From a virus (taxonomy: Duplodnaviria > Heunggongvirae > Uroviricota > Caudoviricetes), in the IMG/VR virus record IMGVR_UViG_3300006204_000001: a stretch of 64,000 bases of DNA, one strand, 5' to 3'. A program made the translations under genes and the position numbers. The notes beneath the pieces were generated by a model. The model was not told the DNA's origin. It searched no databases and saw nothing but the letters and a program-made list of their open reading frames with translations. This document shows, piece by piece, positions 5,019 through 40,912 of this stretch. Position 1 is the first letter of the stretch, and each line of letters starts with the position of its first letter.

Positions 5019-5115
5019 AATAAACTCTCCTTTCTTTTTATATTATTTTTTATTATAGATTCATAATTATAATATATCATGCAATAAAATAAATATACGA
5101 TAAAAATAAAGGGGA

Positions 5116-6015
5116 TTAAATCCCCTTTTCAATTTTGTAGATATGTAATATATTACCGTGCATAGCTTCATTTGGTCCTGCAGTTGCAGTTCCATTTGAT
5201 TTTACATAACGATTTAAATATTTTAAATCCACAAGATATTCAATAACACCGGCACATGTACCATGTTTATGAATTGTAAACATGTTAGTTTCATTCGTAT
5301 CTTTATCTGCCTTTTCATCACCAGTTATTATAGTGAATGAACCAGTATCAGTTACTATAAGAAACCTTTCTCCTACAGTGCCCTTTGTCTTATAAAATGT
5401 ACCTAATGCCACAACATAATCATCAATTCCATCTACAGAAAATTGTTCTTCAGTTATCTTCCATCTTCTAAATCCATCAGAATCAGTATAACATCTTTCA
5501 TCTCGATTAAACCTATATGCAGGAGAATTTTTATTAGTTATAGCATCATATGGTTCAAATGGTTGAAATGATGAATAATCTATATTATAATATTCAGATG
5601 GTAACTTCATCTCATATAAGATTGCATCATCTTTTATTATAGGATCTCCTATAAATTTTGAACTCAGTTTCTTTGGTGGAATATATGTTAACTTTTCATA
5701 ATTTATAACATTTTCAGATCCTATGATTTCATCATTATGAATAGTAGTAGTTGAATAACATACAATCGGTTTAGATGTAGTTTCTAATAAAGTTTTTTCT
5801 ACAACTTCTTTCTTTTTTGTATCAATATATTCATTGACACATATTCCTGCAATAATTTGTGCTACTAACACTATACTACAGATTATTTTTGTTTTTCTTA
5901 TTTTCTTATATGTAGTAATATCATCCTTTCTAAGTGCTATTATTTTTTTTCCATTATCTCTTCTTTTATAACGATAATGGATTTGGTTCTTGTGGATATA
6001 GTATCTCGTATTCAT
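5116..6015 (-). CDS. hypothetical membrane-anchored protein
   Basis: ORF; preferred start at second ATG (MNTRYY..) which has AGGAGG 10 nt upstream; N-terminal TM segment IICSIVLVAQIIAGICV. Confidence 0.45.
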   Translation of the reverse strand: MNTRYYIHKNQIHYRYKRRDNGKKIIALRKDDITTYKKIRKTKIICSIVLVAQIIAGICVNEYIDTKKKEVVEKTLLETTSKPIVCYSTTTIHNDEIIGSENVINYEKLTYIPPKKLSSKFIGDPIIKDDAILYEMKLPSEYYNIDYSSFQPFEPYDAITNKNSPAYRFNRDERCYTDSDGFRRWKITEEQFSVDGIDDYVVALGTFYKTKGTVGERFLIVTDTGSFTIITGDEKADKDTNETNMFTIHKHGTCAGVIEYLVDLKYLNRYVKSNGTATAGPNEAMHGNILHIYKIEKGI

Positions 6016-19200: not shown

Positions 19201-21490
19201 TAGATCTTGGTCTTTTTATCCATCTATCAGAATAATCATAATCATCCATTATTTTTACTATATAATCAAAATAAGATGGTATCCATGTTTTATTAAGATA
19301 CATTTCATAATTAGTAATTCTTTTATATCCTAAAAATTTTTCATTGATACTTTCTTCTAATTTAGATATAGCATCATCAAAAGGAAATTCATAATGTTCA
19401 CTTTTTAAATATGTAGCTATACCTAATTTGAAATATGGATCCATTGTTTCTAAAAATAATTTGTTAAATCTTTCATATGAAGGATTATCAATTATATACT
19501 CTATAATTTGCCATCTAGTATTCGTTGTTAATAATCCTTTATATATAGATTTTATTCCCATCCAATAGAATTTTTCCATAAAAATATCTCTATAAACTGA
19601 TACTTGATCAAAATGATATTCTTCTATATCGTTATCCCATATAGGAGATGATTCTATAATATCTCTATATTGATCTAATACATTCATAGTATCATTATAA
19701 AAGAAAAATGATTTAAAAATTCTATTCAGAGTAGGTTCTTTTTCTTTTCCATCTCTGAGTAAATATACATCAGGAAAATGATTTTCTACTATCAAAGGTG
19801 ATGGTCTCCATACTTTATCATCAGGGAAATATTCAAATGTCCAAAAATCGCTATTTTCTATAGGTCTTTGAAATCTAACTTTATCTTTATAAAAATCTTT
19901 TTCTTCCCATAATACTTTTTTACTCATAGAATGAATAATATTTACCATATAATAGCTATCAGCTAGTTCTCTAGGTATAAATATACATGGTGATATCATG
20001 AACCAAAAATCAGATTTACCATCTACTATATTATCAGTAGGAAATCTATCTAATAAATCACTTGAGCTTCCTTCATTTCTTAATTGATCCATAGCTATTA
20101 TAAATCTTTTATAGAATTTTTCATATTCTTGATCATATTCTATCAATAATACATCTAATAAATCATGATCAGCTTGATGTATTTTTTCCATTATATCTAA
20201 TAATTTATCAATATAATCATTAAATCTATTATCTGCTATATTATCCTCTAATAAATAGAATCTAAATTCTTCTATTATATCAGCACCTTTAATAGTTAAA
20301 TCTCTAAGATTATTTATATAATCTACTAAGGATTCATATGGTTCTTCAAATTCTACAAAAGCATCTGATAATACTATGGGTCTAATAATTTTAGTCCATC
20401 CATCAAACTTTTCTTTCATGTGACCATTAATATCAACATAAACTTGTTTATTAGTATCATTCTTATTAATTTTTGCATGTTGTACTATATAATTTTTCAT
20501 TGTTGATACTGGTTGAAAATTAGGTTGATATGGTCTATATATAACATCTGTAGGTAATAATACTGGATATTCATGAAAGTATTTAGGTACCATTATAGAC
20601 ATCCATAAATATTCTTTCGCTTCTGAATTAATAATTTTTTTATTAAAATCACTAATAGAATTTAAATTAATATATCCATCCTTTATATTTAAAAATTCTA
20701 AATTATCGCCTAATGCATCTATATATTCTGCATTATCATTTCTTTCATTAATATCAGCAATTCTATTAATAGCTACCATAATTTTATCAACATTAGTAAT
20801 TCTACTATCATTAATATAATTTATAGGTAACAACCAATTCCATTGATTATTACATAATTCTCTACTAATTTTTATTCTACATGAAAAATTAGTATCGAAT
20901 TTATAGATATAAACAGGATAATTATTTTTTACCCAATGATCGTAATAATCAAATCTTATAGTAACTTCATGATCATCTATTCGTAATAAATATTCTGAAT
21001 ATATTCTTTTATTAATAAATAATAAACATGCAAATTTGAATATATCCCAATTATTTAGTATATCCTGAATATCTATCCATTTTCTATAAAACTGTGATAA
21101 TTTAAATTTATCACGTTGAGATGGTGGTATAAATTGATCTATAGGAATCACAAAATCACATATATTTACATTTTCTAATAGATTTAAATCTTTCATTCTA
21201 CCATTCCATTGATAAAAATTACAACTATCATGATTACTTGCTTTTAGTTTATGACTATTATTCAAATAAATATCTTTTAAAGTATTTCTTAATGCTTCTT
21301 CATTAAAAGAATTATTCAATACAGCTTCATTTCTAAATATAGATGATCTACTACCATCTTTATCAGGTATATGATATCCTTGTTCTATAATATCATTTGT
21401 ATTGAATAATTGAGTAGCAGTAGAAGTATATTTATCAAATGCTTCACTATACCATTTTGGATCAAATGGACTCCATCTGTCTCTATCCAT
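13274..21490 (-). CDS. giant hypothetical protein (2738 aa), probable virion/structural protein
   Basis: 8.2-kb uninterrupted ORF with strong codon-bias consistency; no catalytic motifs recognised (no DxDGD, no Walker motifs). Confidence 0.7.
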   Translation of the reverse strand: MDRDRWSPFDPKWYSEAFDKYTSTATQLFNTNDIIEQGYHIPDKDGSRSSIFRNEAVLNNSFNEEALRNTLKDIYLNNSHKLKASNHDSCNFYQWNGRMKDLNLLENVNICDFVIPIDQFIPPSQRDKFKLSQFYRKWIDIQDILNNWDIFKFACLLFINKRIYSEYLLRIDDHEVTIRFDYYDHWVKNNYPVYIYKFDTNFSCRIKISRELCNNQWNWLLPINYINDSRITNVDKIMVAINRIADINERNDNAEYIDALGDNLEFLNIKDGYINLNSISDFNKKIINSEAKEYLWMSIMVPKYFHEYPVLLPTDVIYRPYQPNFQPVSTMKNYIVQHAKINKNDTNKQVYVDINGHMKEKFDGWTKIIRPIVLSDAFVEFEEPYESLVDYINNLRDLTIKGADIIEEFRFYLLEDNIADNRFNDYIDKLLDIMEKIHQADHDLLDVLLIEYDQEYEKFYKRFIIAMDQLRNEGSSSDLLDRFPTDNIVDGKSDFWFMISPCIFIPRELADSYYMVNIIHSMSKKVLWEEKDFYKDKVRFQRPIENSDFWTFEYFPDDKVWRPSPLIVENHFPDVYLLRDGKEKEPTLNRIFKSFFFYNDTMNVLDQYRDIIESSPIWDNDIEEYHFDQVSVYRDIFMEKFYWMGIKSIYKGLLTTNTRWQIIEYIIDNPSYERFNKLFLETMDPYFKLGIATYLKSEHYEFPFDDAISKLEESINEKFLGYKRITNYEMYLNKTWIPSYFDYIVKIMDDYDYSDRWIKRPRSTFDIKRFLPILQQTQIDIKNELREINLIIKWILEMLDRESYNLNISNITDLKEYVSIMENNMKEVIDNTANLDLDIYSIDDINIIIRLLSLHKTLTDAINGMQMNIYNDTIEKKVYIQKRMDIENIVTSIIELKLHIDHMSDIIQTFDMEKFMKVTNDLETYFVYNKVNLNDKSLLGHINQFNDPWSVDVKEKRNKLFQSTAILYGNFDSEKSYTYEEIDEFLTSLDNVMTDTIEFKDSINNFYEKFDYEVDKTVIDRLDQISYMLYNDFIVIIERYKGYREELLECINTIETLLSELEKYNISDTEKSYLSTILADLSKIIYALSYIAGINNAKDANNAYDDIQNNISKWMEFINTEESVFLSIIDFTNPENKYLINIEEINKTLTVLMEYMDSVNIEYKPDIQCPTYSDIYEIDKIEMVSGGFKHQEGDYVFIKNLGTYQIDSIENNICIASSISEVNYRTTSFRDPCWQQYIYDSITSGDGMGIMIKAISSKHTVIINDEIVDQIIMSIKNGLYLIRKNLKSYNSYNNNTFEHDLKTLSDIETKWSNILDDFGTHISNNSKQYVDQLIQPLSGLIESCNRFMERRNHITIGELLSQINEFIKDIYKYANNNDLVNKDFIYYSDKFKLIRNKLSEFYGNGTTWENGKKLSDILTEVNLGIVFYKENVLDIFEINPDIENFIDEFNNIIKFISFIKSEIISIPSTISTMIDPTIERLEKNIKNKPELQKDKWYMFHKAGIAESGIGYRVGDIVEIIPQLPTDKNGNEIHDMEDIILNDVILLQVMKVEYGEVVEVEPMMNYAIPYLIWGIRETITRVGIGNGLKIDAYSYEIGIGDMTYFNPLKADILTLPQFNENDLFMYKFENIHDLNIKYDVFLGGNQITNYIHRHFTIDELAENHMQPRGIDAIYINANQLMELQKSKLDITNSHSFIYRLDRLDVKDPGAGYAVGQNIYVDVGEFAIKLRVTELDGTPFKGIKEVALINENINIDESTDCNEAKVINDTLNNIDDEFHNCKYDLLPQEGITKPATSSFANITITTKRYTDTESGDRNEKFLYPDVSIPGPTDKTTYGDSDEGWYQGSRIDNSVSNTKDERVWNGIQNVIPPSDNIISDEKRLPPNQPLKGEYQSIVRQRIHNSEGETNNLTNKKYHNGSILNSAMTKGDITVATYNDIPKHINDYPGIKVGKVVIVLTDETNNSHRTLYTVRTFSPNGYIVYDLPEICDMSWNHFLVDWMNIDCYQDYPTMKAQYPSADWRAENTYMNIENSILEGRVIGTSMPKIMNNTSYIKDITVNDISVFNWTKHEWEDLHSEKWELIVTEDIDNKIFNFKLFYYEEGIYSYDMELFLNKTPETLKKNAVLKKDAIFSIKTTIVGEVNKQAIDTLVHTGRHLRIRKLFPYEQTESYTIGFDRNGEFLGYEMDFKIANYMHFKNELHLEDIKVYNRTAGRYEDILDRSLFEVRFKDDKSETQGWETNTRILQSLIGKSGANFHDGPVWCYNSEYDVTVFGIVTADYKKDGHIITFKPIHFINAPEENIALEFNVFQKDFQTEVQMAIIVIEFITEKVEVFGDGYIHNVINPLAPLPKEFKIISQLDLNRPFEYDIILDKTPKRYTFIEPKWLMNPTFHIKNENVPQDRVYILTEKGRFPLINPSTNKPTLHVVNTQNGTDVTFMNLYRRYEHMNICVTPYPMRSVYVKRRIPSHGFINLKGKLNKPLNKKYFEFWVNGKLLHDEVTIITPTKLILHGLKSLKNFEIIEINRDSNEYFSDNFYEVETSTYGRPYYGWDYDTYLDAALECRLGKDNYTEEEQEYLLSPIWKQVSEDHPEFKNYPPNVDIEDDVLLRTNPEDYPINDLENPSYQFLVINQPTLEGKAIVEQTLTFRHFGYIPITNQMLIDIMNEVWGDEINDNPYFPEHTVLTNDDWYGLSTRLYDEYGVLVHILNNAAYHVTGRSMLKINTKNKISRIIPNPVIYDLT

Positions 21491-27557: not shown

Positions 27558-28724
27558 ATGAAAAATGTAATGTTGATTGGTGTTGGTAACTGTGGATCTC
27601 AGGTTGCTTGTTTAGGAGAAAAATTATATCCTACCTTATTTGATGCAATGTATATTAATACAAGTAAAACTGATCTTTCTATGGTAACTGCAGAATCTGA
27701 ACTTAAATACAAAATTGGTTCAGATGAAGATGTTGAAGGTTCTGGTAAAAATAGAACTAAGATGCAAGAATATCTTGAGAAAGATATTGAAAAGATCTTA
27801 GGCGATGAAAAACTTGAAGATTCTATAATTGATAAGAGTTATGCATTTATTATTACAAGTGCAGCGGGGGGGACAGGATCTGGTGCTTCAACAATTCTTT
27901 ATGAATTTATGAAAGAAAAATTTCCTGATACATTCTTTATCTTAGTAGGTGTATTACCAAAACTTGATTCAACATCATTAATGGAACATGGTAATACATT
28001 AGAGTTTCTTGATGATCTTTATAGAGTATTAGGAGATAATGTAACATATATGCTATATGATAATGAATCAACTGCAAATATGGCAGATACAGTTGCATTA
28101 GAAACAGTTAACAGAAATATTATTGAGGATATTAGAATTCTTACAGGCATTGATAATCATCCTACACCATATGAATCTATTGATAAAGCAGATATGGAAT
28201 CTATAATTACAACACCAGGAAGATTACTTGTTGCAAGAATTAATAAGAATCTTACAGAAAAGAATCTTGAAGATAATAATATTGATAATATTGTTATTAA
28301 AGCAATTAAAGATTCTTGCCATGTTGAGACAGATCGTAATAAACATGTTGTTAGATGGGGTATAATCACATATTTTACAAATGAAGTATATCAGCTGTAC
28401 AAATCATCTTTAACTGCAGTAACAGAATTTTTAGGAATACCTAAAGAAAGATTTAATCATAATGCAATTAATAATAAGGATGAATCATTGTCATTTATGT
28501 ATATGATTGCATCCGGTTTGTCACCTATTAATGATAGGGTAAAGAAAATTACATCAAGAGTAGAATCATTACAAAAGACTTTACCATCTGAAGATACTAA
28601 CAAATATATTCTTGGAGAAGGTGTTTCATATGGAATAATGGAAGAAAGAAGAAAACAGGTAAGAAGAGAAGCTGCTCCATCTGAAATTAATAAAAGTTCA
28701 GTATTTAATAAATTTAAGAAATAA
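27558..28724 (+). CDS. tubulin/FtsZ-superfamily GTPase (phage PhuZ/TubZ-like)
   Basis: N-terminal LIGVGNCGSQVA glycine loop and tubulin signature SAAGGTGSGAS (GGGTGSG); RBS TAGGAGGT. Confidence 0.8.
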   Translation: MKNVMLIGVGNCGSQVACLGEKLYPTLFDAMYINTSKTDLSMVTAESELKYKIGSDEDVEGSGKNRTKMQEYLEKDIEKILGDEKLEDSIIDKSYAFIITSAAGGTGSGASTILYEFMKEKFPDTFFILVGVLPKLDSTSLMEHGNTLEFLDDLYRVLGDNVTYMLYDNESTANMADTVALETVNRNIIEDIRILTGIDNHPTPYESIDKADMESIITTPGRLLVARINKNLTEKNLEDNNIDNIVIKAIKDSCHVETDRNKHVVRWGIITYFTNEVYQLYKSSLTAVTEFLGIPKERFNHNAINNKDESLSFMYMIASGLSPINDRVKKITSRVESLQKTLPSEDTNKYILGEGVSYGIMEERRKQVRREAAPSEINKSSVFNKFKK

Positions 28725-28732
28725 TACATACA

Positions 28733-28772
28733 TAATCAATAGGGCTTATTTATATAGCCCTATTGATTTTAT
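28733..28772 (+). terminator. terminator AATCAATAGGGC-TTATTTATATA-GCCCTATTGATTTTATT
   Basis: 12-bp stem + T-rich tail after tubulin gene. Confidence 0.6.
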
Positions 28773-28802
28773 TGTATGAATAAAATAAAAAGGAGAGAAG
28801 AG

Positions 28803-31178
28803 ATGTTAAAAACAATTGAGAATGCTGTAAAGGGTTATGTTGCTAATAAAATAGTTAAAACAGTATTAACCCCATTAGACACAATAGTAGATCAAAATAT
28901 AATGGATGTAACAACTACTATTGGATCATTTATCGTTAGAAGCGTACGAGGAAAATTTCAAAGGTCTATAACATTTACAATCGGAAATCATTATGCAGAT
29001 AGATGGATGGAAGAAGCTTTATATGGTATTTTGTATAAATACAACAATATCAAAGGTTCCTCTAGATTAGAATTAACTAATAAAGCTGGTATGTCTGATG
29101 GAACTGGAATTTATTATAGACTGGATGATGGTACACATAATCTCAAATATAGAGATTATAATATTTTATTAGGTATATCAACAAGTACTACTCCACTGAC
29201 ATCTGGAAGATCAACACAAGCAAGAATTTATACAGTGATAACTTACGATTTAGATCCAAAATTTATGGAACTATTTGAAAAAGATATGATAGAACACAGA
29301 AATTCTTTATTACAAATAAAGAAGGATAGCCCAGTGGTAAATGTTTATAAAGATTATCATGAATCTGATGGTTATACTTACTGGGAAAAAATGATGACTA
29401 TAAATAAAAGAAAAATAGGTACGGTTTATCTTCCTTATGATCAGAAAAAGAAGTTAGTGGATACCATCAATAATTTCTTTAGTAATAAGGAATATTATAA
29501 AGAACATGGAGTTGCTCATAATCTCAAGATACTTCTTTATGGACCTCCTGGACCACAGCCTGAATCAACTAACATTCCTAATCCAGATGGATGGGATAAA
29601 TTAATGAAAGATTTTAAACCTGGGGACAAAATATTTACAGAAGATGGTTCAATAACAGAAATAGAAGATATAAGAAAATATGAACCTATGGATGTATATA
29701 AAATATATTTTTCAGATGGATCATTTACAAGATGTGCATTGACTCATAGATGGAATATTATACAAAAAGATGGCTCAATTGTTGATAATTCTGTTGAAGA
29801 TATTATTAATTATCTTGGTACTACTAAAGATAATATAACAACATTTGATAATGATTTGTATGTACCAATGGGAGCAGAAGTTCAATATGATCATTCTACT
29901 AATTATAAAAATCTACATCCATATGTTATTGGAATATTAGCTATATGTGGAAGATTTATTGGTAATAATACTAATAAAAAAGTTTGCATTAATACAACTG
30001 AATCTGAAATTTTATATTATTTAAGACAATATTTCCCGTTAGATATATATTTTGAAAAATATGATGATAACAATAATTGGATCATGATGAATAATTGCAA
30101 TCCAGTTTATTTGGATGAATTATTAAAAATAATTCCTCCTGGAATGGTTGTATATAATAATTCAGATGGTTGTGAAACGATTCCATCTAATTATTTATAT
30201 GATGATATTATGACCAGATCTGAATTATTATCTGGAATAATGGATACAACAATTACTGATATAATTAAAACTGATTTGCAAACAATTTTAACATTATCAT
30301 TTCCAACACCAAATTTATGTTTAAGTACTAAACGGTTGATGAATAGTTTAGGAGTTAGACCAACCTTTGTTGATGCTACTACATTAACAGTTGTATGTAA
30401 TTCAAAGGTTTATTCATTTATAAAATATAGCAGTAAAAAGAAATTAATAACTCTTAAATACGATTTAACAATTCCTAATTATGTAAGGAATGCATCATGC
30501 GAATCTGATTCTGTAGTAAAAATTGAACGCATTGAGAAAACAAATGAACAGGAAGCTATGATATGTTTTCATGTCAAAGATGAATCTCATACCTATATTA
30601 CGGAAAATTTTATTTCTACTTGTAATACAGGTAAAGATTCTATTGCAAAAATGATTGCATCAGAATGGAATAGAAATATTTACTATATTACAGGTGGTAA
30701 AGATGGTAACTTTATTCCAAATGCAATTACAGATTCTGATACAGATGATATTAATTACCCATTAATGTTAATATCAGATATTGATAAATATCCAATGTTT
30801 ATCACGGAACCAAAAGATCTTGATGAAAATAGTGATTCTGGCAAAGCAGAAAAAGTTGCTTGGAAACAAAAATTTGGATCTATGATAAATGCCTTAGATG
30901 GAATACTGTCAGGCGAGGATAGAATTATTATAATGACAACTAATCACATTGAAAAGTTTTCTGAAACATTTAGAAGACCAGGTAGAATCGATTTGGAATT
31001 ATTAATTGATTATGTAACTCCAGAGGTATTTAGGAAATTTATATATGATAATTTTAATTATGAATTACCTAAAGATATTAAATTAAAAGATGACAAATTA
31101 ACTATTGCTAAAGTTCAATTTGATATTATGTTCCAAAAGATGACAGTAGAAGAAATTATAAAGAAATATATAAAATAA
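28803..31178 (+). CDS. BCS1-like AAA+ ATPase precursor containing a 358-aa intein-like insertion in the Walker A loop
   Basis: FFSNKEYYKEHGVAHNLKILLYGPPG | insert | TGKDSIAKMIASEW ; sensor-1 IIIMTTNH; SRH box RPGRIDLEL; RBS AAAGGAGAGAAGAG. Confidence 0.75.
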   Translation: MLKTIENAVKGYVANKIVKTVLTPLDTIVDQNIMDVTTTIGSFIVRSVRGKFQRSITFTIGNHYADRWMEEALYGILYKYNNIKGSSRLELTNKAGMSDGTGIYYRLDDGTHNLKYRDYNILLGISTSTTPLTSGRSTQARIYTVITYDLDPKFMELFEKDMIEHRNSLLQIKKDSPVVNVYKDYHESDGYTYWEKMMTINKRKIGTVYLPYDQKKKLVDTINNFFSNKEYYKEHGVAHNLKILLYGPPGPQPESTNIPNPDGWDKLMKDFKPGDKIFTEDGSITEIEDIRKYEPMDVYKIYFSDGSFTRCALTHRWNIIQKDGSIVDNSVEDIINYLGTTKDNITTFDNDLYVPMGAEVQYDHSTNYKNLHPYVIGILAICGRFIGNNTNKKVCINTTESEILYYLRQYFPLDIYFEKYDDNNNWIMMNNCNPVYLDELLKIIPPGMVVYNNSDGCETIPSNYLYDDIMTRSELLSGIMDTTITDIIKTDLQTILTLSFPTPNLCLSTKRLMNSLGVRPTFVDATTLTVVCNSKVYSFIKYSSKKKLITLKYDLTIPNYVRNASCESDSVVKIERIEKTNEQEAMICFHVKDESHTYITENFISTCNTGKDSIAKMIASEWNRNIYYITGGKDGNFIPNAITDSDTDDINYPLMLISDIDKYPMFITEPKDLDENSDSGKAEKVAWKQKFGSMINALDGILSGEDRIIIMTTNHIEKFSETFRRPGRIDLELLIDYVTPEVFRKFIYDNFNYELPKDIKLKDDKLTIAKVQFDIMFQKMTVEEIIKKYIK
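29553..30626 (+). mobile_element. intein-like (Hint + degenerate LAGLIDADG) element, in-frame
   Basis: Block-A-like DKIFTEDGSITEIEDI, block B CALTHRW, LAGLIDADG-like YVIGILAICGRF, C-terminal ..HTYITENFISTCN followed by Thr; exact restoration of GPPGTGKDS on removal. Confidence 0.55.
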
Positions 31179-31226: not shown

Positions 31227-31394
31227 ATGCCTGGTTTAGTTTTAGCAGTTATAATTGGAGCTATAATAATTTGGTTCACTATATCATTTGCTTTTCCTAC
31301 TATAGGAAAATTCTGTAAATCTATGTGGGAAAATGCAGTTGGTATTGATGAAAATAAAAATGAAAAAGGAGAAAAAGAAAATGAAGAAAAGTAG
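31227..31394 (+). CDS. small single-TM membrane protein (55 aa)
   Basis: MPGLVLAVIIGAIIIWFTISFAF..; RBS AAAGGAT; overlaps start of next gene. Confidence 0.35.
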   Translation: MPGLVLAVIIGAIIIWFTISFAFPTIGKFCKSMWENAVGIDENKNEKGEKENEEK

Positions 31395-31695
31395 TAAAAT
31401 TGTAGGAGCTTATTTTACAGGAATAATTATTATTATTGCATTAATTTTCATGCATATATGTTTATCAAGAGTTCCTACAGGATATTGTGGAGTTGTATAC
31501 TCTATCAATGGTGGTGTAACAGGTAAAGTTGTTGATCAAGGTTGGCATTGGCATGGTATCGGAGAAAGAATTACTAATTATTCCATTGGAATAGAGCAGT
31601 CATATTTAACTGCTACAAATAATGGTGATTCTCCTGAGAATGATAGTTTCTCGGCTCCATCCTCAGATGGTAAAGGTTTACACAGATGGAATTAA
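31381..31695 (+). CDS. SPFH/band-7 (stomatin/HflKC-like) protein, N-terminal part (TM + start of band-7 domain)
   Basis: TM helix IVGAYFTGIIIIIALIFMHI then band-7-like ..VPTGYCGVVYSINGG..; frame ends at 31695. Confidence 0.55.
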   Translation: MKKSSKIVGAYFTGIIIIIALIFMHICLSRVPTGYCGVVYSINGGVTGKVVDQGWHWHGIGERITNYSIGIEQSYLTATNNGDSPENDSFSAPSSDGKGLHRWN

Positions 31696-32330
31696 CATTT
31701 ACATATCGATTTGATAGGACAAGAATATCTGATACCTTTACAAGATTTAAAGGATTGAGTGGTCAAGAAGTATTAACAACATTTATCAAACCAAATGTTA
31801 TTTCTTGGACTAAAGAAATTACTGCAAAATATCCTGTTACTGAAATATTAGGTGATAAACGTGCTGATCTTAATATTGTGCTAACTGATTATCTCAGAGA
31901 AAAATTTGATTCATATGGTATTATAATTGATTCAGCCATGTTAATCAATATTGAACCTGATGAAGAGATAAAAGCAGCAATTCAGAAAAAGATTACTGCT
32001 CAGCAAGAACTTGAACTTGCTAAGGTACAAGCAGAAACAGCAAGGATAGATGCAGAGAAAGAAAAAGAAGTAGCTTTAATTGAAGCTGAAAAGAATAAGG
32101 AGACTGCATCTATTAATGCAGAAAAAGTTAAAATTGAAGCACAGGGTAAAGCAGATGCTAAACGTATTGCTGCTGAGGCAGAAGCAGAAGCAAATGTTAA
32201 GATTGCTCAATCATTAACACCTGAATTGATTGAGAAAATTAAATATGAACATTGGGATGGAAAACTTCCATATGTTCAAGGAAGTTCATCATCTATTATT
32301 GATATGAAAGATTTCAATGAAGGAGACTAA
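31686..32330 (+). CDS. SPFH/band-7 protein, C-terminal part (continues in another frame) with coiled-coil AEAEAEA tail
   Basis: LTFTYRFD..PNVISWTKEITAKYP..DSYGIIIDSAMLINIEPDEE then ELELAKVQAETARIDAEKEKE coiled coil, typical HflK/C and flotillin architecture. Confidence 0.55.
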   Translation: MELTFTYRFDRTRISDTFTRFKGLSGQEVLTTFIKPNVISWTKEITAKYPVTEILGDKRADLNIVLTDYLREKFDSYGIIIDSAMLINIEPDEEIKAAIQKKITAQQELELAKVQAETARIDAEKEKEVALIEAEKNKETASINAEKVKIEAQGKADAKRIAAEAEAEANVKIAQSLTPELIEKIKYEHWDGKLPYVQGSSSSIIDMKDFNEGD

Positions 32331-32539: not shown

Positions 32540-35500
32540 ATGAGTAATACTATTAATGAAAAAACAACTTCATTATCATTTCTAAAACAAGCGGCTAATG
32601 TTATTACAAATGGATCTATTAGTTATATAAATAAAGTAATGCCCAATACTACAGATACACTCAAAGAAGCAAAAGCTACAGTTAATGAGGTAACATCTAC
32701 ATTTAGTAATACAACTGGCAATGTATTTCCTATATTGAGAAAATTAAAATCTCAAATTAGTTATAAAGGAATACTTAATTGGTTTTATGAGAAAGAAGAT
32801 TCATTTGATTCTGGAGTTGATATACCATCATCATATGATGATGGTAGTGATTTTGAAATGGCTGAGGTTCAAATAAATCAATCAGAAAAAAATGCTAAAG
32901 AAATTTCACAAACTATAGTTGAATCAAGTAGACATATGGTAGAAAGTGAAATTGCATCTACGGCAAATCTTACTCATACTATATCTGCTCAAACAGCAGT
33001 TATTACTTCTGGATTTGATTCAGTTAATAAAAATCTTGAAAATATAGCAGAAATAATATCAAAAAATACATCCGCTATTATAGAATTACAAACAGCAAGT
33101 TCTAAAGTAGAATTGATAAGCAGAACTCAAACAGATGCTGACGAATCACGTAAAAGAATGCAATCGGGTAAATTTAATTTATCTGATTATAAAGCTATAT
33201 TGAAGGATAATTTTGCTAATAGTGAATTAGGTCTTTCTTTAGGTACAGCATCTGGATTACTTAGTAATAGTGGAATGATTAAAGATCTTCTTTCTCCAAC
33301 TAATCTATTATCAGTTGGAATAAGTAAAGCTGTTGATAAAGCATCACCTAATTTTAGAAAAAATGCAAAGGCATTAGATGATGCCATTAGTGAAACTATA
33401 ATGACTTCATTAATTAGATTAGGAGAAAGTAAAAAGGAAGTATTTGGAGTTAATCTTGGTAAAATATTTGGTATTGATTCATCAAGAGAAAAAATTGATA
33501 CTAGCAGGCAAACATTAGAATTACATGCTACACCATTTGATACATTAACTAAAGATACTATTAATAGTGGTATCACTGGTTATCTTAGAAAGATTTTAGT
33601 TGCTGTAGGTGGTGATGATGTAATTTATGATGCTAGAAGTCGTAGCTTTAAAACACAAAAACAATTGAAAAAAGAATATAGAGCAGAATCCATTAATACA
33701 AGTGCTTTATATCAAGCTACTGACAGAGTAAAACAAAATCTTGGTAATGAAGATTTTACTAAGATGATGTATTCTTTAATGATGAATGATTTAAGTAACA
33801 GAACTGGTCCTAATGGTAATGCTAGAAATCAAATAAATCAATTTAAAAATTTTGATGTTACTTATGATTATCTTAAATCATTATTAGGTAATAATGCAAC
33901 TTCTACTGATCTCGATAATATCAAGGTATTAGCAAAACGATTAGGAAGACTACCAACTGGTTATGGCGAGCAAGACATCATGAATCAAGCTGCTAGAGAA
34001 GCAATAAAAAGAAATAATAAAATGAAAGAATATGTTATCAATGCTGATAATTACGGAGTTGATTTATCTTTCATTAATGATAGTACAAAAGCTGATGCTA
34101 ATACAATAAAGAAGACATTTGGTAGATCAGATATAGAAATTAAAAATTCACCCAGTAGAATTTCTACTTTAACGAATATTGATTATACTTATAAAGCTTT
34201 ATATGAAATATATAGAAGGCTTAATAAAGGTATTAATGTATTTAAGGTAGGAGAGAATAATAGAAGATCTAAACCATATACTGATTGGAAAGATAATTAT
34301 CTTTCCAAACCCTCTGGATATAAATCCAAAACTATAAATGATGCTGATACAACTACCAATGGTATTTTAGCAAATATGGGTCGATTAGATGATGGACCTA
34401 ATCAATTGAGAAATAATACATTGGAAGATGGAACTACCGAAGAGTTGACTGGTGGACAAAGATTCTCCAGATGGGGTAAACAACGGGGTGGGGAATTTAT
34501 CAAAGCTATGTTCTCAGGTAATCCTGGTGATGTGAAACGAGTATTTGGAAATATTATACAGGATGTATCAGGAGTAGCTAGTGACAAAATAAAATCTCAA
34601 GCAAATAAAGTTAATGATAAATACGGTAATGCATCTGGTTATCTTAAACATAAACTATTTGGAACATCATATAGATATACTAATGATGAAGGCAAGGAAG
34701 TTGAAATAGAAAAAAATGATAAAGGTGGTTATGCTGGATTTATTAAAAAGAAATTATTTGGTAAATTAGGTGATACAAATAATTCTGTACAAAAATGGTT
34801 TAAGGATGTAGCTGGATATTTTGATTATGGTAATAAAGAAGATAAAAAGAACGGTGTTGAATCAAAAAGAAAGAAACTTATATCAACATCTATAGGTGCA
34901 CTTGGAGGTGGTTTATTAGCTGGACCATTAGGTGTATTAATGGGATCAATGGCTGGATCAGCATTCTCAAATTTTAATATTGGCGATAAATTCAAAGAGA
35001 AATTATTTGGTAGGGATGATAATGGTAAAGCTAAAGGTTTATTAACTAAAGTATTTGATAAAATGACAAGGCCCATTACTTATCAAATTAAGAAGACAAC
35101 TAATTATTTTGGTAATGTATTAAAGAAAAATATATTTGGACCATTATCAGATTTAGGTTTTGCTATGAGAGAAAGAATGTTACATCATGTAGATGGATTA
35201 ATGAAGAAAACTATGAATTTTATTAAGAATTCTTTCATAGGTAAAGCATTCAGTGCTGCTAAAAAGAAAGTTGGAGGTGCAGTAAAAACAGGAGCCAAAA
35301 AAGTATTTGGTGGTTTAGGTAATCTATTATATGGAGGCTCAGTAGGTACATTAGGTTTGGCTGCTAGGCAAACTTTAAATGCGAATACATTACTACCTAG
35401 AGCTGGTTTAAATGGTTTATCAAATTTATTGGTTCATAATACAGGTACTTATGAAGTTGATCCAGATACTGGTGAACGTGTATGGGTATCAGGAAAAGAT

Positions 35501-38500
35501 AAACTAAAACAACGTAGAGAAGAACGTAATGCATCAATTAAACGTGATATGGATCGTTATAGTTTATTTGGTGGATATGCCGAATATAATAGAGAACTAG
35601 ATGCAAAACATGCTACAAATAAGAATGAATTAGAGCAATATATAGCTGAAGGAACTCCTAAGATTGTAGAAAATACAGAACAAACAAATGAAATCTTAGA
35701 TAATCTAACTGATGTAAATAGGGAATCAAATGAAGCTTTACAAAATTTAGATCGTAATAGTAGCGAGGTTGGTTCTCTATTTACACATGATCAAGGTATT
35801 CATGATAAATTAGATAAATTATATGCATTCTTAACTGGTAATACATCTACTAATAAACCAAGTAATACTCCTGAAGGTCATTATAAATCAGATAAAAAGG
35901 CAGATGATGATAGTTTAAAGAATGCATTAGAAAATAAATCATCCAAAGCACCTACTTTAATAGGTGGAGGAAATCAATCTGACCCTATATTAGGTAGCGC
36001 TCTAGGTTCAATTTCTACTATTGCAGCTAATAACGGATTATCTAATGATGAGGCACAAACTACAAATGAGACTATAGCTGAATTATCTAAAGATAAACCT
36101 AATAAAAATTCCATATCAGCTAAATTACAGAAGATTATTAATATTAATAAAACAAAATCGGATGAGGATGATAAAGATAAAAAAAAGAAAAAATCTTTAT
36201 TCTGGGATATATTAGGAAAGATTGGTAATTTTGCAGGAGGATTTCTTGATAAACTTCCTTTAATTTTAGGAGGTATTGCTGCATTTAAACTATTTTGTGG
36301 TGATTTTGAAGGTGTAAAGGATGTTGTTAGTAGAATTGGTAATGGTATAGATTCTATAGCTAGCTTTATTACAGGAAAATCAAAGGATGATGGCACAACA
36401 GCAGGAATGAATGCAGTAACATCATTAGCAGATATACAATCAGATAGTCCAATGAGTTATGCTATACCTGGAGCTGAATTATATCATAATGAACGAGATT
36501 GTGCAGGTAACAGAATTAGAAATCAAAATGCTACTAAAGCAAAGAATACTATTCTTATTGGAGCTAATCTAAAGAATGCTTTTATGAATAAATGGCATGG
36601 TACTAATAATTCTAGTTTTACATCTACAATGGCTAGAACTAGAGCTAGTATATCAGGTAGAATTAATAACATTTCGTCTAGTGTTTATAATAAACTTGAT
36701 AATAGTGTATTAGGTAAATTTGGATTAGGAAGAAAAATAAAGAATAAAGCAAGTAAGATTAGAGATAATAGTGCAGCGGCACAAGCTAATCAAGATCAGA
36801 TTGCAAATAACAATGTTACTACAGTAGATAATTTGAAATCTAGAGTAGGAACTGCAGCTAGCTTAAGTTTCTTATCAGGAGCTGCTGGTTTAGGAGCTAA
36901 AGGCATTGCTAAAGCATTTGGTAGAGATGAAGAGTCTCAAGACAGATGGAGTAGAATTGGTTCAGGTGGTACTGCATTAGTATTAACAGCTAATCATGGT
37001 ATGTCTAAACTTACTGGAAAGAAATCATTAATTGATTTATTCAAAGAATTAGTAAGTAAGTTATTTAAATACTTAGCTGGAAAATTTAAAGAAAATGGTA
37101 TACTTAAAAAATGTGCATCTAAGGTAGATGATATCTTTACTGGATTAGATACAAAAATATTTACTGGTCTTAAAGATAAGATGATAGATATTGTATCTAA
37201 GAAATTATTAGAGTTAGGAGTAGTATCAAGTGGTGAACAAGCATTATCTGCAGCTACATTAGGTATACCAATTGTAGTTGGTGGCATTAGTGGTTTTATA
37301 GATGGTATATGTGGAGTAGAACATTTGTTCAGTGTACTTCCAGGTGATGCAGATGGAACTATGAAAACGATATCTATCTTATTAAATACTGCATTAGGTG
37401 CAGCCGCATTTGTACCAGGTGTTGGTTATGCTGTAGCTTGTATTGATATTATTGATGCTATTATGTCAGCTATTCCTGTATTTAAAGGAAAAGGTTTAAC
37501 ACAATATTTAGCTGAGCTTTTATATAATATTATCAATGGAGCAAAGAATTTAGTTACTGGAAAGAAAGGTAATAAATTAAAAGAAGCACATGCTGAAGTT
37601 ACAAGAAACACAAAGGCTTATAATGAAAAATTTGGTACTAACTTAAGTGAATCTGATATTATTGATGCTACGACTAATAAAGGTTGGTGGGATGCTTTAT
37701 GGCATGGTAAAGCGTATAAAGGTGATAATGGTTTACTTGTTACTGATAGAGCTGGAAATTTCCTTGGAAAAGGTGGTATTACTAATGCTTTATTTGGTAA
37801 TAACAAAATATATGAAAGTGATACCGAAGGCAATGTCTTAAAGAATCAATATGGAGAAGCTGTAGTTAAAACTGATAAATACGGTCTCGGATCATACAAA
37901 AATAATATGAAGATCGGTGACTATGCTAAGTTTGGATTTAATTCAGCTAAACGTTTCTTTACAGGTGGTGAAGTATATAAGACTGATGAAAAAGGAAATG
38001 TCATATATGATGAAAATGGTAATCCAATTGTAGATCATAAGGAATCAAATATCTTTACGAGAGTATTTAAAGAAAAGAAATTTTTAGATGAAGCTACAAC
38101 ACAGTCTATCAACACTACTAAAAGTTTTATCAAGAATATATTTAAGAAAGAAACAATTAAAGATGAGAATGGAAATGAAATTCTTGATGAAAATGGTAAA
38201 CCTATAGAAAGAAGTAAAGCTGGAAATGTTATTGTTAAAGCTACTAATGTTATTAATGGTGCATTATTCGGAGGAGTAGGAGGTGTATTTAAAGCTCTTA
38301 AGAAGAATGAAAAAGAGCAATATGAATTAGACGAAAATGGTAAACCGTTATTAGATGCAGATGGTAACAAAGTTAAGAAAGGAACACTTGGTTCTGTAAT
38401 TACTAAAGGATTAGGTAAGATAGGAAATACAGCATTATCATTCTTAACTGGTGGAGCATTAAAAGATACTGAGTTAGTTAAAAGTGTTAAAAATAGTAAA

Positions 38501-40912
38501 TGGTTTGATACTTTATCTAATATGATTAATGGTATTAATAAAGGTGGTCCCGAAAATATTGCTAATAATATAAGCAATGCAGCTAAGAGTATAGCATATA
38601 ATGCAGCAAATGTTACTAAAGGAGCACCTACGACTGAAGGCGGCAATCCATTAGATAAAGAATATAAAATTACAAGTACTTTTGGTCCAAGAAAATATCC
38701 TCATACTGGAGAACATCATGGTGTTGATCTTAAACCTGCTGGAAATATGAATACATATGCAGATGTATTTAGTAGATTTAGTGGTGTCATTGAAGATATA
38801 AAGTCTGATGTTCCTAATACAGATCATGCAGTTATGTCACAAGATGGAACATGGACTTATGAAGGTAATAATGAAACTGGTAATATGGTTTCTATTAGAA
38901 CTAAAGATGGATTCTTAATTAAAAATATGCATCTGAAACAAGGTACTATACCTACTAATCTTAAAGTTGGATCTGAAATACAAGCTGGTCAGAAGATAGG
39001 TGAAATGGGTAACACAGGTTGGTCAACTGGTCCTCATTTACATTATCAGATACAAGATCAAAATGGTAATTATATAGATCCAACATATACATTACTTGGA
39101 ACTCCAAATTCCAAAAATGGAATAAGTGGCGCAATAAATTCAGTGGCTAATGTAACTGCTTCAACTATAACTGGGTCATCTTATTATCCATCAGCTTCTT
39201 CAGATAACCAAACTACATCTGGTGGTATATTAGCTGAAATATTATCTGTAATAAAGGATGCAGGTAATAGTTTATTAAGTAAGATTACTGGTGGTTTAAT
39301 AGGTAACTCATCAAGTAATAATTCAGATGAATCATCAGCATATTCAACAGGAGTAATGTCTGCAGAAAATACTATGTTGACAAATTCTCCTAATAGTGAT
39401 TGGGTTTCTATAGTAAGAGCAGTAAAACAATTAGTAGCAGCTCAAGCGCCGGTATATAATCAATCAGGTTATATTAATATTACTTATAATGGGAGGACTG
39501 TAAAGACAAGAACTGATTGTACTGGTATCATAGCTACTATGTTAAAATTCTATGGGGTGTTACCAGAATCAACTAATATTACTTCAAGAGTATTATTAAC
39601 TGAAGGAGCTATACCAAATGGATTTACAAAATCACCTTGGCCAGGTTGGGATAAGTTAGTGGAAGGTGATATTATTAGTAGAGCTGGACATGCAGAAATA
39701 TTTGCATTTAATAACGGAAATAAACATATGGTTTATAATGGTGGATCTACTAATGCACTTGCATCACCTGGGGCTACTTATACTGGTCATAAAGATGGTT
39801 ATGATGTTATTTGGAGATGTAATGAAACTTCATCTATTAACAATTTAATACCAGGAATGTCAAATGGTGTATTAGGAACAGGAGCTGAATTATTATTTCC
39901 ACAAGAATATGGTCATAATGAAACATTTGAAAAAGAAATTCTTAAGGATAAATATGACTCACCTACTCATGGATGGTCTCCTTCTTCAAGACAAGGGCAA
40001 CTACGAAAAGATGCTATTGCAAATAATCGTCTTAAACCACAAAATGCATTTGGTTTAACAAATGTGGCAACTATAGATGATAGAATGCTTATAGCAACAA
40101 AAGAAAATATAGGTAACCAATTCCCTGTTAATGTAGGTGATCATGTAGATGTACAGTTTACTGATGGATCTGTATGGAATACAATGATTGGTGATATTAA
40201 GGGTAATGATGCACCACATCCATGGGGTCATAATAATGGTAAAGATTCTGTAGAAATTATTTATTGGGATTATAAAAATAATTCTGGTAATCAAAGAAAG
40301 AAAGTGAATAAACTTGTAAAGACTGGTGGCACTTATATACCAGGAGCTGCTCCATCTAAAACTGATATAAATAATATAGGTATGATAGGTGGTATTTCTA
40401 ATAATTTATTACAGAATATAACCAATGCTGGTATTAATAAAGCTAATACAAGTATATCAAATGGAACTGGTGGACCTGTAGATTCATCAACTACAATAAA
40501 CAAACAAAATTATACATCTACTAAGACACAAATAACAAAGCCAAAAAATAATATCGTTTCTATAAATAATATTGATAGTAGATCAAAATCAATTGAATCA
40601 TCTAAGCGAGAAGTACCAACAGCAAGATCAGAAAGTGCTTCTAATAATATTAGTAATGATAATAAAGAGATAATAAAATTATTATATTCTATAATTGATT
40701 ATCTTGGTTCAATTGATAATAATTCTGGAACTTCAAATGAATTACTTAATTCTATTAACAGTAGTGGATTTGTAGATCAAGGTTTAAGAAATGAATTAAG
40801 CTCTGCTTCTGAGTTAATAAATAAGAAAAGAGCTAATAAACATACCATGAATTATAAACAAACAAATCCTGCAAATAATAGAATGATATCAAATTTAGCT
40901 AGACCTGTATAA
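32540..40912 (+). CDS. giant tape-measure-like virion protein (2790 aa) with M23 peptidase and NlpC/P60-like cysteine peptidase domains
   Basis: Coiled-coil N-half; glycine-zipper TM segment LISTSIGALGGGLLAGPLGVLMGSMAGS; M23 motifs HTGEHHGVD ... GNTGWSTGPHLHYQ (about 38650-39090); Cys/His pair DCTGIIATML ... GHAEIFAF (about 39440-39830); RBS GAGGTGGTG. Confidence 0.8.
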   Translation: MSNTINEKTTSLSFLKQAANVITNGSISYINKVMPNTTDTLKEAKATVNEVTSTFSNTTGNVFPILRKLKSQISYKGILNWFYEKEDSFDSGVDIPSSYDDGSDFEMAEVQINQSEKNAKEISQTIVESSRHMVESEIASTANLTHTISAQTAVITSGFDSVNKNLENIAEIISKNTSAIIELQTASSKVELISRTQTDADESRKRMQSGKFNLSDYKAILKDNFANSELGLSLGTASGLLSNSGMIKDLLSPTNLLSVGISKAVDKASPNFRKNAKALDDAISETIMTSLIRLGESKKEVFGVNLGKIFGIDSSREKIDTSRQTLELHATPFDTLTKDTINSGITGYLRKILVAVGGDDVIYDARSRSFKTQKQLKKEYRAESINTSALYQATDRVKQNLGNEDFTKMMYSLMMNDLSNRTGPNGNARNQINQFKNFDVTYDYLKSLLGNNATSTDLDNIKVLAKRLGRLPTGYGEQDIMNQAAREAIKRNNKMKEYVINADNYGVDLSFINDSTKADANTIKKTFGRSDIEIKNSPSRISTLTNIDYTYKALYEIYRRLNKGINVFKVGENNRRSKPYTDWKDNYLSKPSGYKSKTINDADTTTNGILANMGRLDDGPNQLRNNTLEDGTTEELTGGQRFSRWGKQRGGEFIKAMFSGNPGDVKRVFGNIIQDVSGVASDKIKSQANKVNDKYGNASGYLKHKLFGTSYRYTNDEGKEVEIEKNDKGGYAGFIKKKLFGKLGDTNNSVQKWFKDVAGYFDYGNKEDKKNGVESKRKKLISTSIGALGGGLLAGPLGVLMGSMAGSAFSNFNIGDKFKEKLFGRDDNGKAKGLLTKVFDKMTRPITYQIKKTTNYFGNVLKKNIFGPLSDLGFAMRERMLHHVDGLMKKTMNFIKNSFIGKAFSAAKKKVGGAVKTGAKKVFGGLGNLLYGGSVGTLGLAARQTLNANTLLPRAGLNGLSNLLVHNTGTYEVDPDTGERVWVSGKDKLKQRREERNASIKRDMDRYSLFGGYAEYNRELDAKHATNKNELEQYIAEGTPKIVENTEQTNEILDNLTDVNRESNEALQNLDRNSSEVGSLFTHDQGIHDKLDKLYAFLTGNTSTNKPSNTPEGHYKSDKKADDDSLKNALENKSSKAPTLIGGGNQSDPILGSALGSISTIAANNGLSNDEAQTTNETIAELSKDKPNKNSISAKLQKIININKTKSDEDDKDKKKKKSLFWDILGKIGNFAGGFLDKLPLILGGIAAFKLFCGDFEGVKDVVSRIGNGIDSIASFITGKSKDDGTTAGMNAVTSLADIQSDSPMSYAIPGAELYHNERDCAGNRIRNQNATKAKNTILIGANLKNAFMNKWHGTNNSSFTSTMARTRASISGRINNISSSVYNKLDNSVLGKFGLGRKIKNKASKIRDNSAAAQANQDQIANNNVTTVDNLKSRVGTAASLSFLSGAAGLGAKGIAKAFGRDEESQDRWSRIGSGGTALVLTANHGMSKLTGKKSLIDLFKELVSKLFKYLAGKFKENGILKKCASKVDDIFTGLDTKIFTGLKDKMIDIVSKKLLELGVVSSGEQALSAATLGIPIVVGGISGFIDGICGVEHLFSVLPGDADGTMKTISILLNTALGAAAFVPGVGYAVACIDIIDAIMSAIPVFKGKGLTQYLAELLYNIINGAKNLVTGKKGNKLKEAHAEVTRNTKAYNEKFGTNLSESDIIDATTNKGWWDALWHGKAYKGDNGLLVTDRAGNFLGKGGITNALFGNNKIYESDTEGNVLKNQYGEAVVKTDKYGLGSYKNNMKIGDYAKFGFNSAKRFFTGGEVYKTDEKGNVIYDENGNPIVDHKESNIFTRVFKEKKFLDEATTQSINTTKSFIKNIFKKETIKDENGNEILDENGKPIERSKAGNVIVKATNVINGALFGGVGGVFKALKKNEKEQYELDENGKPLLDADGNKVKKGTLGSVITKGLGKIGNTALSFLTGGALKDTELVKSVKNSKWFDTLSNMINGINKGGPENIANNISNAAKSIAYNAANVTKGAPTTEGGNPLDKEYKITSTFGPRKYPHTGEHHGVDLKPAGNMNTYADVFSRFSGVIEDIKSDVPNTDHAVMSQDGTWTYEGNNETGNMVSIRTKDGFLIKNMHLKQGTIPTNLKVGSEIQAGQKIGEMGNTGWSTGPHLHYQIQDQNGNYIDPTYTLLGTPNSKNGISGAINSVANVTASTITGSSYYPSASSDNQTTSGGILAEILSVIKDAGNSLLSKITGGLIGNSSSNNSDESSAYSTGVMSAENTMLTNSPNSDWVSIVRAVKQLVAAQAPVYNQSGYINITYNGRTVKTRTDCTGIIATMLKFYGVLPESTNITSRVLLTEGAIPNGFTKSPWPGWDKLVEGDIISRAGHAEIFAFNNGNKHMVYNGGSTNALASPGATYTGHKDGYDVIWRCNETSSINNLIPGMSNGVLGTGAELLFPQEYGHNETFEKEILKDKYDSPTHGWSPSSRQGQLRKDAIANNRLKPQNAFGLTNVATIDDRMLIATKENIGNQFPVNVGDHVDVQFTDGSVWNTMIGDIKGNDAPHPWGHNNGKDSVEIIYWDYKNNSGNQRKKVNKLVKTGGTYIPGAAPSKTDINNIGMIGGISNNLLQNITNAGINKANTSISNGTGGPVDSSTTINKQNYTSTKTQITKPKNNIVSINNIDSRSKSIESSKREVPTARSESASNNISNDNKEIIKLLYSIIDYLGSIDNNSGTSNELLNSINSSGFVDQGLRNELSSASELINKKRANKHTMNYKQTNPANNRMISNLARPV

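Follow-up and report, generated by a model that had tools for sequence, protein, structure and literature searches.

A probable class 3 intein with a degenerate endonuclease domain in the Walker A motif of a BCS1-like AAA+ ATPase from a likely jumbo phage

Introduction

Class 3 inteins are defined by a non-nucleophilic residue 1 that co-varies with a Trp-Cys-Thr (WCT) triplet and with Thr or Ser at position +1 (PMC2807308), and their splicing pathway has been established for MP-Be DnaB, MsmDnaB1 and others (PMC2807308, PMC5222942, PMC6195587). The prototype, MP-Be DnaB of mycobacteriophage Bethlehem, carries Pro1, His65, Trp67, Cys320, Thr339, His340, Asn341 and Thr+1 (PMC2807308), and the catalytic residues of MchDnaB1 are His65, Trp67, Cys124 and Thr143 (PMC7664689). 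In phage terminases, class 3 inteins occupy the GK|T site and neighboring sites (PMC5050341). Here we analyze a stretch of 64,000 nucleotides (nt) from the Caudoviricetes record IMGVR_UViG_3300006204_000001 (hereafter, the window), in which the open reading frame (ORF) of a BCS1-like AAA+ ATPase is interrupted within the Walker A motif (P-loop) by an insert of 358 codons. The insert is very probably a class 3 (WCT) intein with a probably inactive LAGLIDADG domain, located at GPPG|TGKDS of a jumbo-phage ATPase. A first-pass annotation of the window had described it as an intein-like element with non-canonical terminal residues.

An in-frame insert in the Walker A motif

The ORF reads, in order, ..KILLYGPPG, PQPESTN...FISTCN and TGKDSIAK.., with the insert at amino acids (aa) 260-617 when the ORF is counted from its first ATG as an 800-aa protein. 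The insert is exactly 1074 nt long (358 codons) and in frame, and its excision restores GPPG|TGKDS; the boundaries 29553-30626 proposed in the first-pass annotation, together with the restoration of the P-loop upon deletion, proved exact in the reading of the ORF, in the Pfam AAA match and in the BCS1 alignment. On the unspliced protein, the match to Pfam AAA (PF00004) begins at profile position 8 (positions 8-130, E 1.2e-6); on the conceptually spliced protein, it is continuous over positions 1-130 (E 3.3e-13). Among solved structures, the spliced protein is closest to BCS1 (6sh3, E 3.4e-22; 6uko), ahead of VCP, Cdc48 and Rpt, and the alignment with 6sh3 is free of gaps over the restored loop (LLYGPPGTGKDS / LLYGPPGSGKTS). 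The earlier assignment of the host to BCS1-like AAA+ ATPases is borne out by this extein alignment, with 6sh3 as the best match in the PDB, and one ortholog carries the source name "chaperone BCS1". The AAA module contains Walker A, sensor 1 and the Arg finger region. Given that a Pfam scan of the host protein yielded no match to the BCS1 N-terminal domain, we restrict the term "BCS1-like" to the AAA module.

At the DNA level, conceptual excision of 29553..30626 yields CCTCCTGGA|ACAGGTAAA, which is colinear with an intein-free ortholog; the longer excised sequence CCTCCTGGA|ACAGGTAAAGAT is colinear with GATCCTGGAACAGGAAAAGAT of an intein-free contig in which a tubulin gene also lies directly upstream. 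The junction peptide of the ligated product is predicted to be LLYGPPGTGKDSIAK. The G+C content of the intein (26.4%) equals that of the genome (26.5%), which argues against a recent arrival from a foreign background.

Two other interpretations of the inserted DNA were considered and rejected. The insert reads through in frame without a break and is homologous to proteins along its whole length, which rules out a DNA-level intron. The other candidate, a gene of its own on the complementary strand, fails because that strand has no ORF of at least 60 aa inside 29553..30626.

The Walker A motif of the host has an unusual form. In most members of the phage ATPase family, including intein-free ones, it reads GxxGTGK-D-S rather than GK[ST] (TGKDS, 30627..30641, in the window), with Asp at the usual Mg2+-binding position. 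The Asp that follows the Walker A Lys is a family trait and not an artefact.

Intein anatomy and the class 3 residues

The insert contains the complete class 3 set, namely Pro1, His65, Trp67, Cys338, Thr356, Asn358 and Thr+1 (Table 1). In phmmer comparisons, its residues 6-68 pair with residues 6-68 of MchDnaB1 (6rix/6riy) and of MsmDnaB1 (6bs8). When the endonuclease region is deleted, residues 6-130 of the shortened insert align with residues 6-135 of 6rix (E 0.002), and this alignment pairs amiCfhvkdesHtyi with pvrCvevdnpaHlyl, that is, places Cys338 on Cys124. Cys338 is also aligned to the engineered Cys107 of gp41-1_WCT when the family profile is compared with the PDB sequences. The similarity of the Trp, the block F Cys and the Thr to the WCT pattern, which had been suggested in the first-pass annotation, thus turns out to be a class 3 signature in register with MchDnaB1 and MsmDnaB1.

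The termini are exactly those reported in that annotation (Pro1, Cys357, Asn358 and Thr+1); the description of Pro1 as non-canonical, however, does not hold because Pro is residue 1 of the prototype class 3 intein (PMC2807308). Likewise, the approximately 22 extra residues that were thought to precede block A contain block A itself, which comprises residues 1-14 and corresponds to the family consensus AQPxSxxIPTPxGW, and the segment DKIFTEDGS that had been taken for block A is the beta-hairpin that comes next. We also looked for other splice boundaries that would place Cys or Ser at position 1 and found none compatible with the family alignment.

Table 1. Coordinates of the precursor gene, its exteins and the elements of the intein (window numbering)
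Feature	Coordinates	Strand	Details
Precursor gene, BCS1-like AAA+ ATPase plus intein	28803..31178	+	791 aa from ATG 28803
N-extein	28803..29552	+	250 aa; ends ..KILLYGPPG, first half of Walker A
Class 3 intein (very probable)	29553..30626	+	358 aa; Pro1 ... Thr356-Cys357-Asn358
Block A, PQPESTNIPNPDGW	29553..29594	+	residues 1-14; in register with residues 6-14 of 6rix and 6bs8
Block B core CALTHRW, with Cys61 (B:6), His65 (B:10), Trp67 (B:12)	29733..29753	+	aligned to His65 and Trp67 of MchDnaB1
LAGLIDADG homing-endonuclease-like domain, degenerate	29853..30506	+	aa ~101-318; profile and Foldseek
LAGLIDADG motif 1 remnant, PYVIGILAICGR	29919..29954	+	consensus PYxLGxLLGDG; Gly131 to Ile, Asp132 to Cys
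LAGLIDADG motif 2 remnant, RSELLSGIMDTTIT	30216..30257	+	consensus RxxLLQGLMDTDGS; Asp233 to Thr, Gly234 to Ile
C-terminal half of Hint, blocks F and G, ..EAMICFHVKDESHTYITENFISTCN	30507..30626	+	family conservation, alignment with MchDnaB1
Cys338 (F:4)	30564..30566	+	aligned to Cys124 of MchDnaB1
Thr356-Cys357-Asn358 (G:5-G:7)	30618..30626	+	Thr356 and Asn358 100% conserved in the family
C-extein	30627..31178	+	183 aa plus stop; starts with Thr+1 of TGKDSIAK; holds MTTNH (sensor 1) and RPGRID
Thr+1, codon ACA	30627..30629	+	first C-extein residue

Homologous family and fold

A word-indexed protein search with the insert returned nothing. HMMER, run exhaustively over 1.84 billion representative proteins (cut-off E<=1e-3), detected 3,469 homologs of the insert, embedded in many different ATPases, with E values down to 2e-33. 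The PHROG matches are internal segments of terminase, helicase loader, primase and polymerase families, and tblastn revealed matches in 94 phage genomes, within helicases, terminases, primase-helicases, PhoH and RNA ligase (in 24 of the 94, the match covers at least 80% of the insert length). The relatives carry the Pfam domains LAGLIDADG_3, Hom_end, Hom_end_hint and Intein_splicing.

Conservation was assessed on 114 full-length alignments of insert homologs. In these family members, the element resides inside larger proteins, usually after GxxGxGK, starts with AQP.. and ends with ..VTHN followed by Thr or Ser; His65, Cys338, Thr356 and Asn358 are each conserved in 100% of the sequences and Trp67 in 98%.

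A profile built on a 23-sequence alignment (A1) and compared with the PDB sequences matched gp41-1, MchDnaB1 and MsmDnaB1 (Hint part) as well as PI-SceI, with E values from 1e-19 to 1e-12. The AlphaFold2 model of the insert, based on the same alignment, has a mean predicted local distance difference test score (pLDDT) of 82.7 and a predicted template modeling score (pTM) of 0.85. In a Foldseek comparison of the model with the PDB, the top match was PI-SceI (E 1e-14, TM 0.61-0.65), followed by the TliVMA, PI-PfuI, PhoVMA, PI-PkoII, Prp8, DnaB (class 3 included) and gp41-1 inteins and by Hedgehog. The insert is thus predicted to fold as a Hint domain, and it contains blocks A, B, F and G.

One further feature of the family concerns block B. 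Cys61 (29733..29735), which precedes the block B His by four residues (CxxxH), is found in 88% of the phage class 3 family, in all 23 sequences of alignment A1 and in every allele at the present site; mycobacterial class 3 inteins have DxxH where the phage family has CxxxH.

Alleles at the insertion site

The extein search retrieved 1,560 homologs, and the insertion site was surveyed in the best 120 of these, which are 57-71% identical and mostly 425-445 aa long. An unbroken LLYGPPG[TS]GKDS motif (LLYGPPGTGKDS) is present in 107 of the 120, which are intein-free; in the remaining 13, the G|[TS]GK site is occupied by an intein. The shortest of these are mini-inteins, down to 146 aa, and the longest reaches 341 aa; all 13 have Pro1, the block F Cys and a terminal Asn before Thr, Ser or Cys. 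For comparison across 14 alleles, the 13-intein set was taken together with the window sequence and the representative P0017, with the truncated P0001 besides. All 14 start with PQP, contain CxxxH.[WF] and the block F Cys, and end with Asn before Thr, Ser or Cys; G:5 is Thr in 13 and Ser in one. The mutual identity of these alleles is only 25-38%.

The intein-bearing alleles are scattered among the intein-free ones, and some intein-bearing and intein-free exteins are nearly identical, with 2 differences in 432 positions (P0183/P0165), 4 in 437 (P0252/P0220) and 10 in 433 (P0158/P0153), and with an identical junction within each pair. Given that these natural intein-free proteins equal the predicted ligated product, they support the assignment of the junction and imply either recent gain or precise loss of the intein. 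The exteins of the three pairs are 98-99.5% identical, and the inteins in them have a degenerate or deleted endonuclease; the pairs point to recent gain or precise loss via recombination rather than homing.

In two other orthologs (P0257 and P0100), a different class 3 mini-intein with Ala1 is located three residues downstream, in the classic GK|T position (GSGK|AQP...ITHN|TS). In these proteins, the Asp after the Walker A Lys is replaced by Thr, which is the +1 nucleophile.

A degenerate endonuclease domain between conserved splicing halves

The central part of the family profile aligns with residues 202-454 of PI-SceI (E 1e-12), and Foldseek matches for the double LAGLIDADG fold include I-DmoI, the bI3 maturase, I-AniI and the endonuclease domain of PI-SceI. 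An active endonuclease is expected to have a catalytic Asp closing each LAGLIDADG motif, and here both are gone; the loss of acidic residues from a degenerate LAGLIDADG domain had been recognized in the first-pass annotation and corresponds to Asp132->Cys and Asp233->Thr. Among the 114 family members, the Gly and Asp of motif 1 are conserved in 95% and 82%, respectively, and the Asp and Gly of motif 2 in 94% and 98%. The positions retained in the domain are structural (Pro123, Tyr124, Gly127, Pro211, Tyr214, Arg222, Gly228 and Gly267), and the functional ones have been replaced (Gly131->Ile, Asp132->Cys, Lys208->Glu, Asp233->Thr, Gly234->Ile, Ser252->Thr and Lys304->Asp). The Pfam LAGLIDADG profiles yielded no match to the insert; the relative P0001, in which DTDG is retained, scores 31.4 bits.

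The splicing halves present a different picture. Of the 13 columns that are at least 90% conserved, the insert matches 12 (Gly13, Gly24, Gly32, Tyr49, Asp55, Gly56, His65, Trp67, Ile324, Cys338, Thr356 and Asn358), the exception being the penultimate His; the relatives are 30-50% identical to it over the Hint halves and 10-25% identical over the endonuclease part. With both catalytic Asp residues lost, the endonuclease is probably inactive and the element probably can no longer home. The combination of kept splicing residues and lost endonuclease residues is, as far as the sequence tells, what one would expect if splicing were still required and homing were gone.

Weighing splicing against its alternatives

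The data show the anatomy of the insert, its homologs, its predicted fold and its conserved residues, as well as intein-free alleles that equal the predicted ligated product, and we consider a class 3 intein to be the strongly favored interpretation of the insert; that the protein does splice, and does so by the class 3 route, we infer from these observations. Several findings count against this interpretation. Taken by itself, the insert matched no intein, Hint or LAGLIDADG model in Pfam or NCBIfam; the nearest relative in the exhaustive HMMER scan is only 33% identical; and the penultimate residue (G:6) is Cys357 instead of the His that normally helps the Asn to cyclize and is present in 96% of the 114 family members. 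In view of the profile and structure matches described above, the null scans reflect divergence rather than absence. The expectation that Hint, Intein_splicing and LAGLIDADG profiles would recognize the insert accordingly failed for direct Pfam and NCBIfam matches and stood for relatives identified via PHROGs, tblastn, exhaustive HMMER and structure.

Cys357 is the sole real departure from the class 3 consensus and the main source of uncertainty about splicing. The substitution, already noted in the first-pass annotation, is real and yet represents the majority state at this site, with Cys in 10 of the 14 alleles, Phe in two, Met in one and His in one. Active inteins without the penultimate His have been reported (PMC2807308, PMC7664689) and mutation of this His in MP-Be DnaB had minimal effect (PMC2807308), so the His is not obligatory.

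The first-pass annotation had offered the alternative of a decayed, non-splicing Hint insertion that would leave the P-loop permanently split. On this view, the insert would be a dead Hint/LAGLIDADG element, and the gene would be either a pseudogene or the source of a protein that lacks ATPase activity and has another role. The degenerate endonuclease motifs, the missing penultimate His and the lack of a Pfam intein match all fit this proposal. It is nevertheless unlikely: the catalytic splicing residues are intact here and in 13 other alleles at 25-38% identity, even as the endonuclease decays or is deleted, and the mini-inteins that dropped the endonuclease keep the exact boundaries. The penultimate Cys, as the majority state, is no one-off lesion. 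Furthermore, the ORF contains no stop codons or frameshifts, and the exteins, in which Walker A, sensor 1 and RPGRID are all preserved, remain 58-71% identical to intein-free orthologs.

Less likely still is that the intein is active but departs from the class 3 route, either through direct attack by Thr+1 (class 2-like) or with Cys61 and Cys357 serving as nucleophiles or as a redox switch. The prevalence of Cys61 across the family and of Cys357 among the site alleles would agree with such a role, as would the reversible inhibition of a class 3 DnaB intein, MsmDnaB1, by a disulfide to the catalytic Cys (Cys48-Cys118; PMC6195587). Against this stands the full WCT triplet which, together with the block B His (B:10) and Thr+1, co-varies with the block F Cys mechanism (PMC2807308), whereas class 2 inteins lack the triplet. 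A related and doubtful proposal, on which we place little weight, is that Cys357 and the family-wide Cys61, beside Cys338, might make class 3 splicing conditional on redox state or metal, in analogy to the disulfide switch of MsmDnaB1.

An assembly or annotation artefact, such as a chimeric contig or two genes joined by sequencing error, has a negligible probability: although the apparent frameshift in the adjacent Band_7 gene (see below) indicates that the window sequence may hold errors, the insert is an exact, in-frame 1074 nt with the G+C content of the genome, and independent contigs from other samples have homologous inserts at the identical codon boundary, which excludes an artefact for practical purposes.

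Proposed splicing pathway

Most likely, on the evidence of the conserved and lost residues, the class 3 intein splices yet can no longer home. Under the class 3 pathway, the split P-loop would leave the 791-aa precursor incapable of proper ATP binding. After folding, Cys338 (F:4), activated by His65 and Trp67, would attack the Gly(-1)-Pro1 bond to give a thioester branched intermediate; the N-extein would then be transferred to the side chain of Thr+1, cyclization of Asn358 would free the 358-aa intein, and an O-to-N shift would produce the 433-aa ATPase, its GPPGTGKDS loop now whole. The intein would persist because its imprecise loss would destroy the ATPase.

Gene start and genomic setting

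The first ATG of the mechanically delineated ORF is at 28776 (28776..31178, + strand) and would give an 800-aa protein. A strong AGGAGA ribosome-binding site lies 6 nt 5' of the ATG at 28803, and a terminator-like hairpin (caatagggct...agccctattg, then a T-rich run; 28741..28802) is located after the tubulin gene and before this ATG. The conceptually spliced product from ATG 28803 is 433 aa long and matches the ortholog length. Given these features, ATG 28803 rather than 28776 is probably the true start, in agreement with the 791-aa precursor of the first-pass annotation.

The window is AT-rich (26.5% GC) and encodes a primase, a tubulin/PhuZ-like protein, a family B polymerase exonuclease domain, a type II topoisomerase and a superfamily 2 (SF2) helicase; it looks like a piece of a jumbo phage genome. 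Two giant ORFs, 13274..21490 (- strand; 2,738 aa) and 32540..40912 (+ strand; 2,790 aa), bracket the cluster of replication-type genes, and both have counterparts in L001, an intein-free relative from another metagenome (2,918 aa, with Peptidase_M23 and Phage_lysozyme2, and 2,813 aa). The tubulin/PhuZ-like gene (27558..28724, + strand) lies directly 5' of the ATPase gene. In L001, where the tubulin gene is at 4746..5921, the order is again tubulin followed by AAA, and this recurrence suggests that the tubulin and AAA ATPase genes form a conserved pair.

Just 3' of the ATPase gene, a Band_7/SPFH gene (31333..32330, + strand) is split over two overlapping ORFs in different frames, of which 31333..31695 covers Pfam Band_7 positions 2-50 and 31686..32330 covers positions 62-173. 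The split could reflect a sequencing-error frameshift, a pseudogene or programmed frameshifting. A megablast search of GenBank phages with the ATPase gene returned zero matches, and a six-frame hidden Markov model (HMM) search of the window detected no second copy of the 29553..30626 intein family.

Implications

The annotation of this locus is corrected from an 800-aa protein of unknown type to a 433-aa BCS1-like ATPase with a 358-aa class 3 intein. The range of class 3 inteins is thereby widened by one host protein family and by the G|TGK insertion point, in keeping with phages being their main reservoir, and the current understanding of inteins is left unchanged. The 14 alleles, which span full-length, degenerate-endonuclease and mini-inteins along with near-identical intein-free partners, may constitute a natural series for intein decay and for how well the class 3 active site copes without the G:6 His. 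Protein engineering, too, has an interest in class 3 mini-inteins, whose nucleophile is internal. Should splicing be conditional, maturation of an ATPase encoded beside a tubulin gene would be gated post-translationally by the state of the infected cell, and should the penultimate Cys be a selected functional substitute for the G:6 His, the class 3 active site would gain a form new to it.

Comparison with known inteins

The BCS1-like ATPase host and the G|TGK site are not described in the class 3 intein literature cited here. For MP-Be DnaB, the comparison is by published residues: tblastn and the family HMM found no intein in positions 30000-52250 of AY500153, where gp44 is a DNA polymerase. 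The direct comparison of register relies on the solved MchDnaB1 and MsmDnaB1 inteins.

MP-Be DnaB shares with the insert Pro1, His65, Trp67 (B:12), the F:4 Cys, the G:5 Thr, the terminal Asn and Thr+1, and is likewise phage-encoded within an ATPase gene, has a LAGLIDADG domain and is of similar size (341 aa vs 358 aa here). It differs in its host, which is helicase-like and not a BCS1-like AAA+ ATPase, in having Gln at -1 and in the penultimate His340 (PMC2807308), which is Cys in the insert. MchDnaB1 and MsmDnaB1 (6rix, 6riy and 6bs8) have the Hint fold, the His, Trp and catalytic Cys in register and a P-loop insertion in common with the insert; unlike it, they are bacterial mini-inteins without an endonuclease, inserted at the GK|S/T site of DnaB, with an Ala start, a penultimate His and DxxH in block B.

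PI-SceI (VMA1) and other LAGLIDADG class 1 inteins provide the best structural match to the whole model and combine splicing and endonuclease domains. In contrast to the insert, they have a Cys1 nucleophile, an Asp-type block F and an active endonuclease, and the identity is just 10-14%.

The class 3 inteins in the P-loops of phage terminases, helicases and PhoH (PMC5050341), together with the metagenomic relatives, are placed by HMMER in one family with the insert and share with it the Hint-LAGLIDADG-Hint architecture, the AQP/PQP...THN|T/S pattern and the Walker A location. Most of these are inserted at GK|T and have Ala1, whereas the insert described here is at G|TGK, three residues upstream, with Pro1, a Thr-Cys-Asn terminus and a probably inactive endonuclease. 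The insert is accordingly of a known kind, a class 3 intein; what is new about it is its host protein, its insertion at G|TGK and its penultimate Cys.

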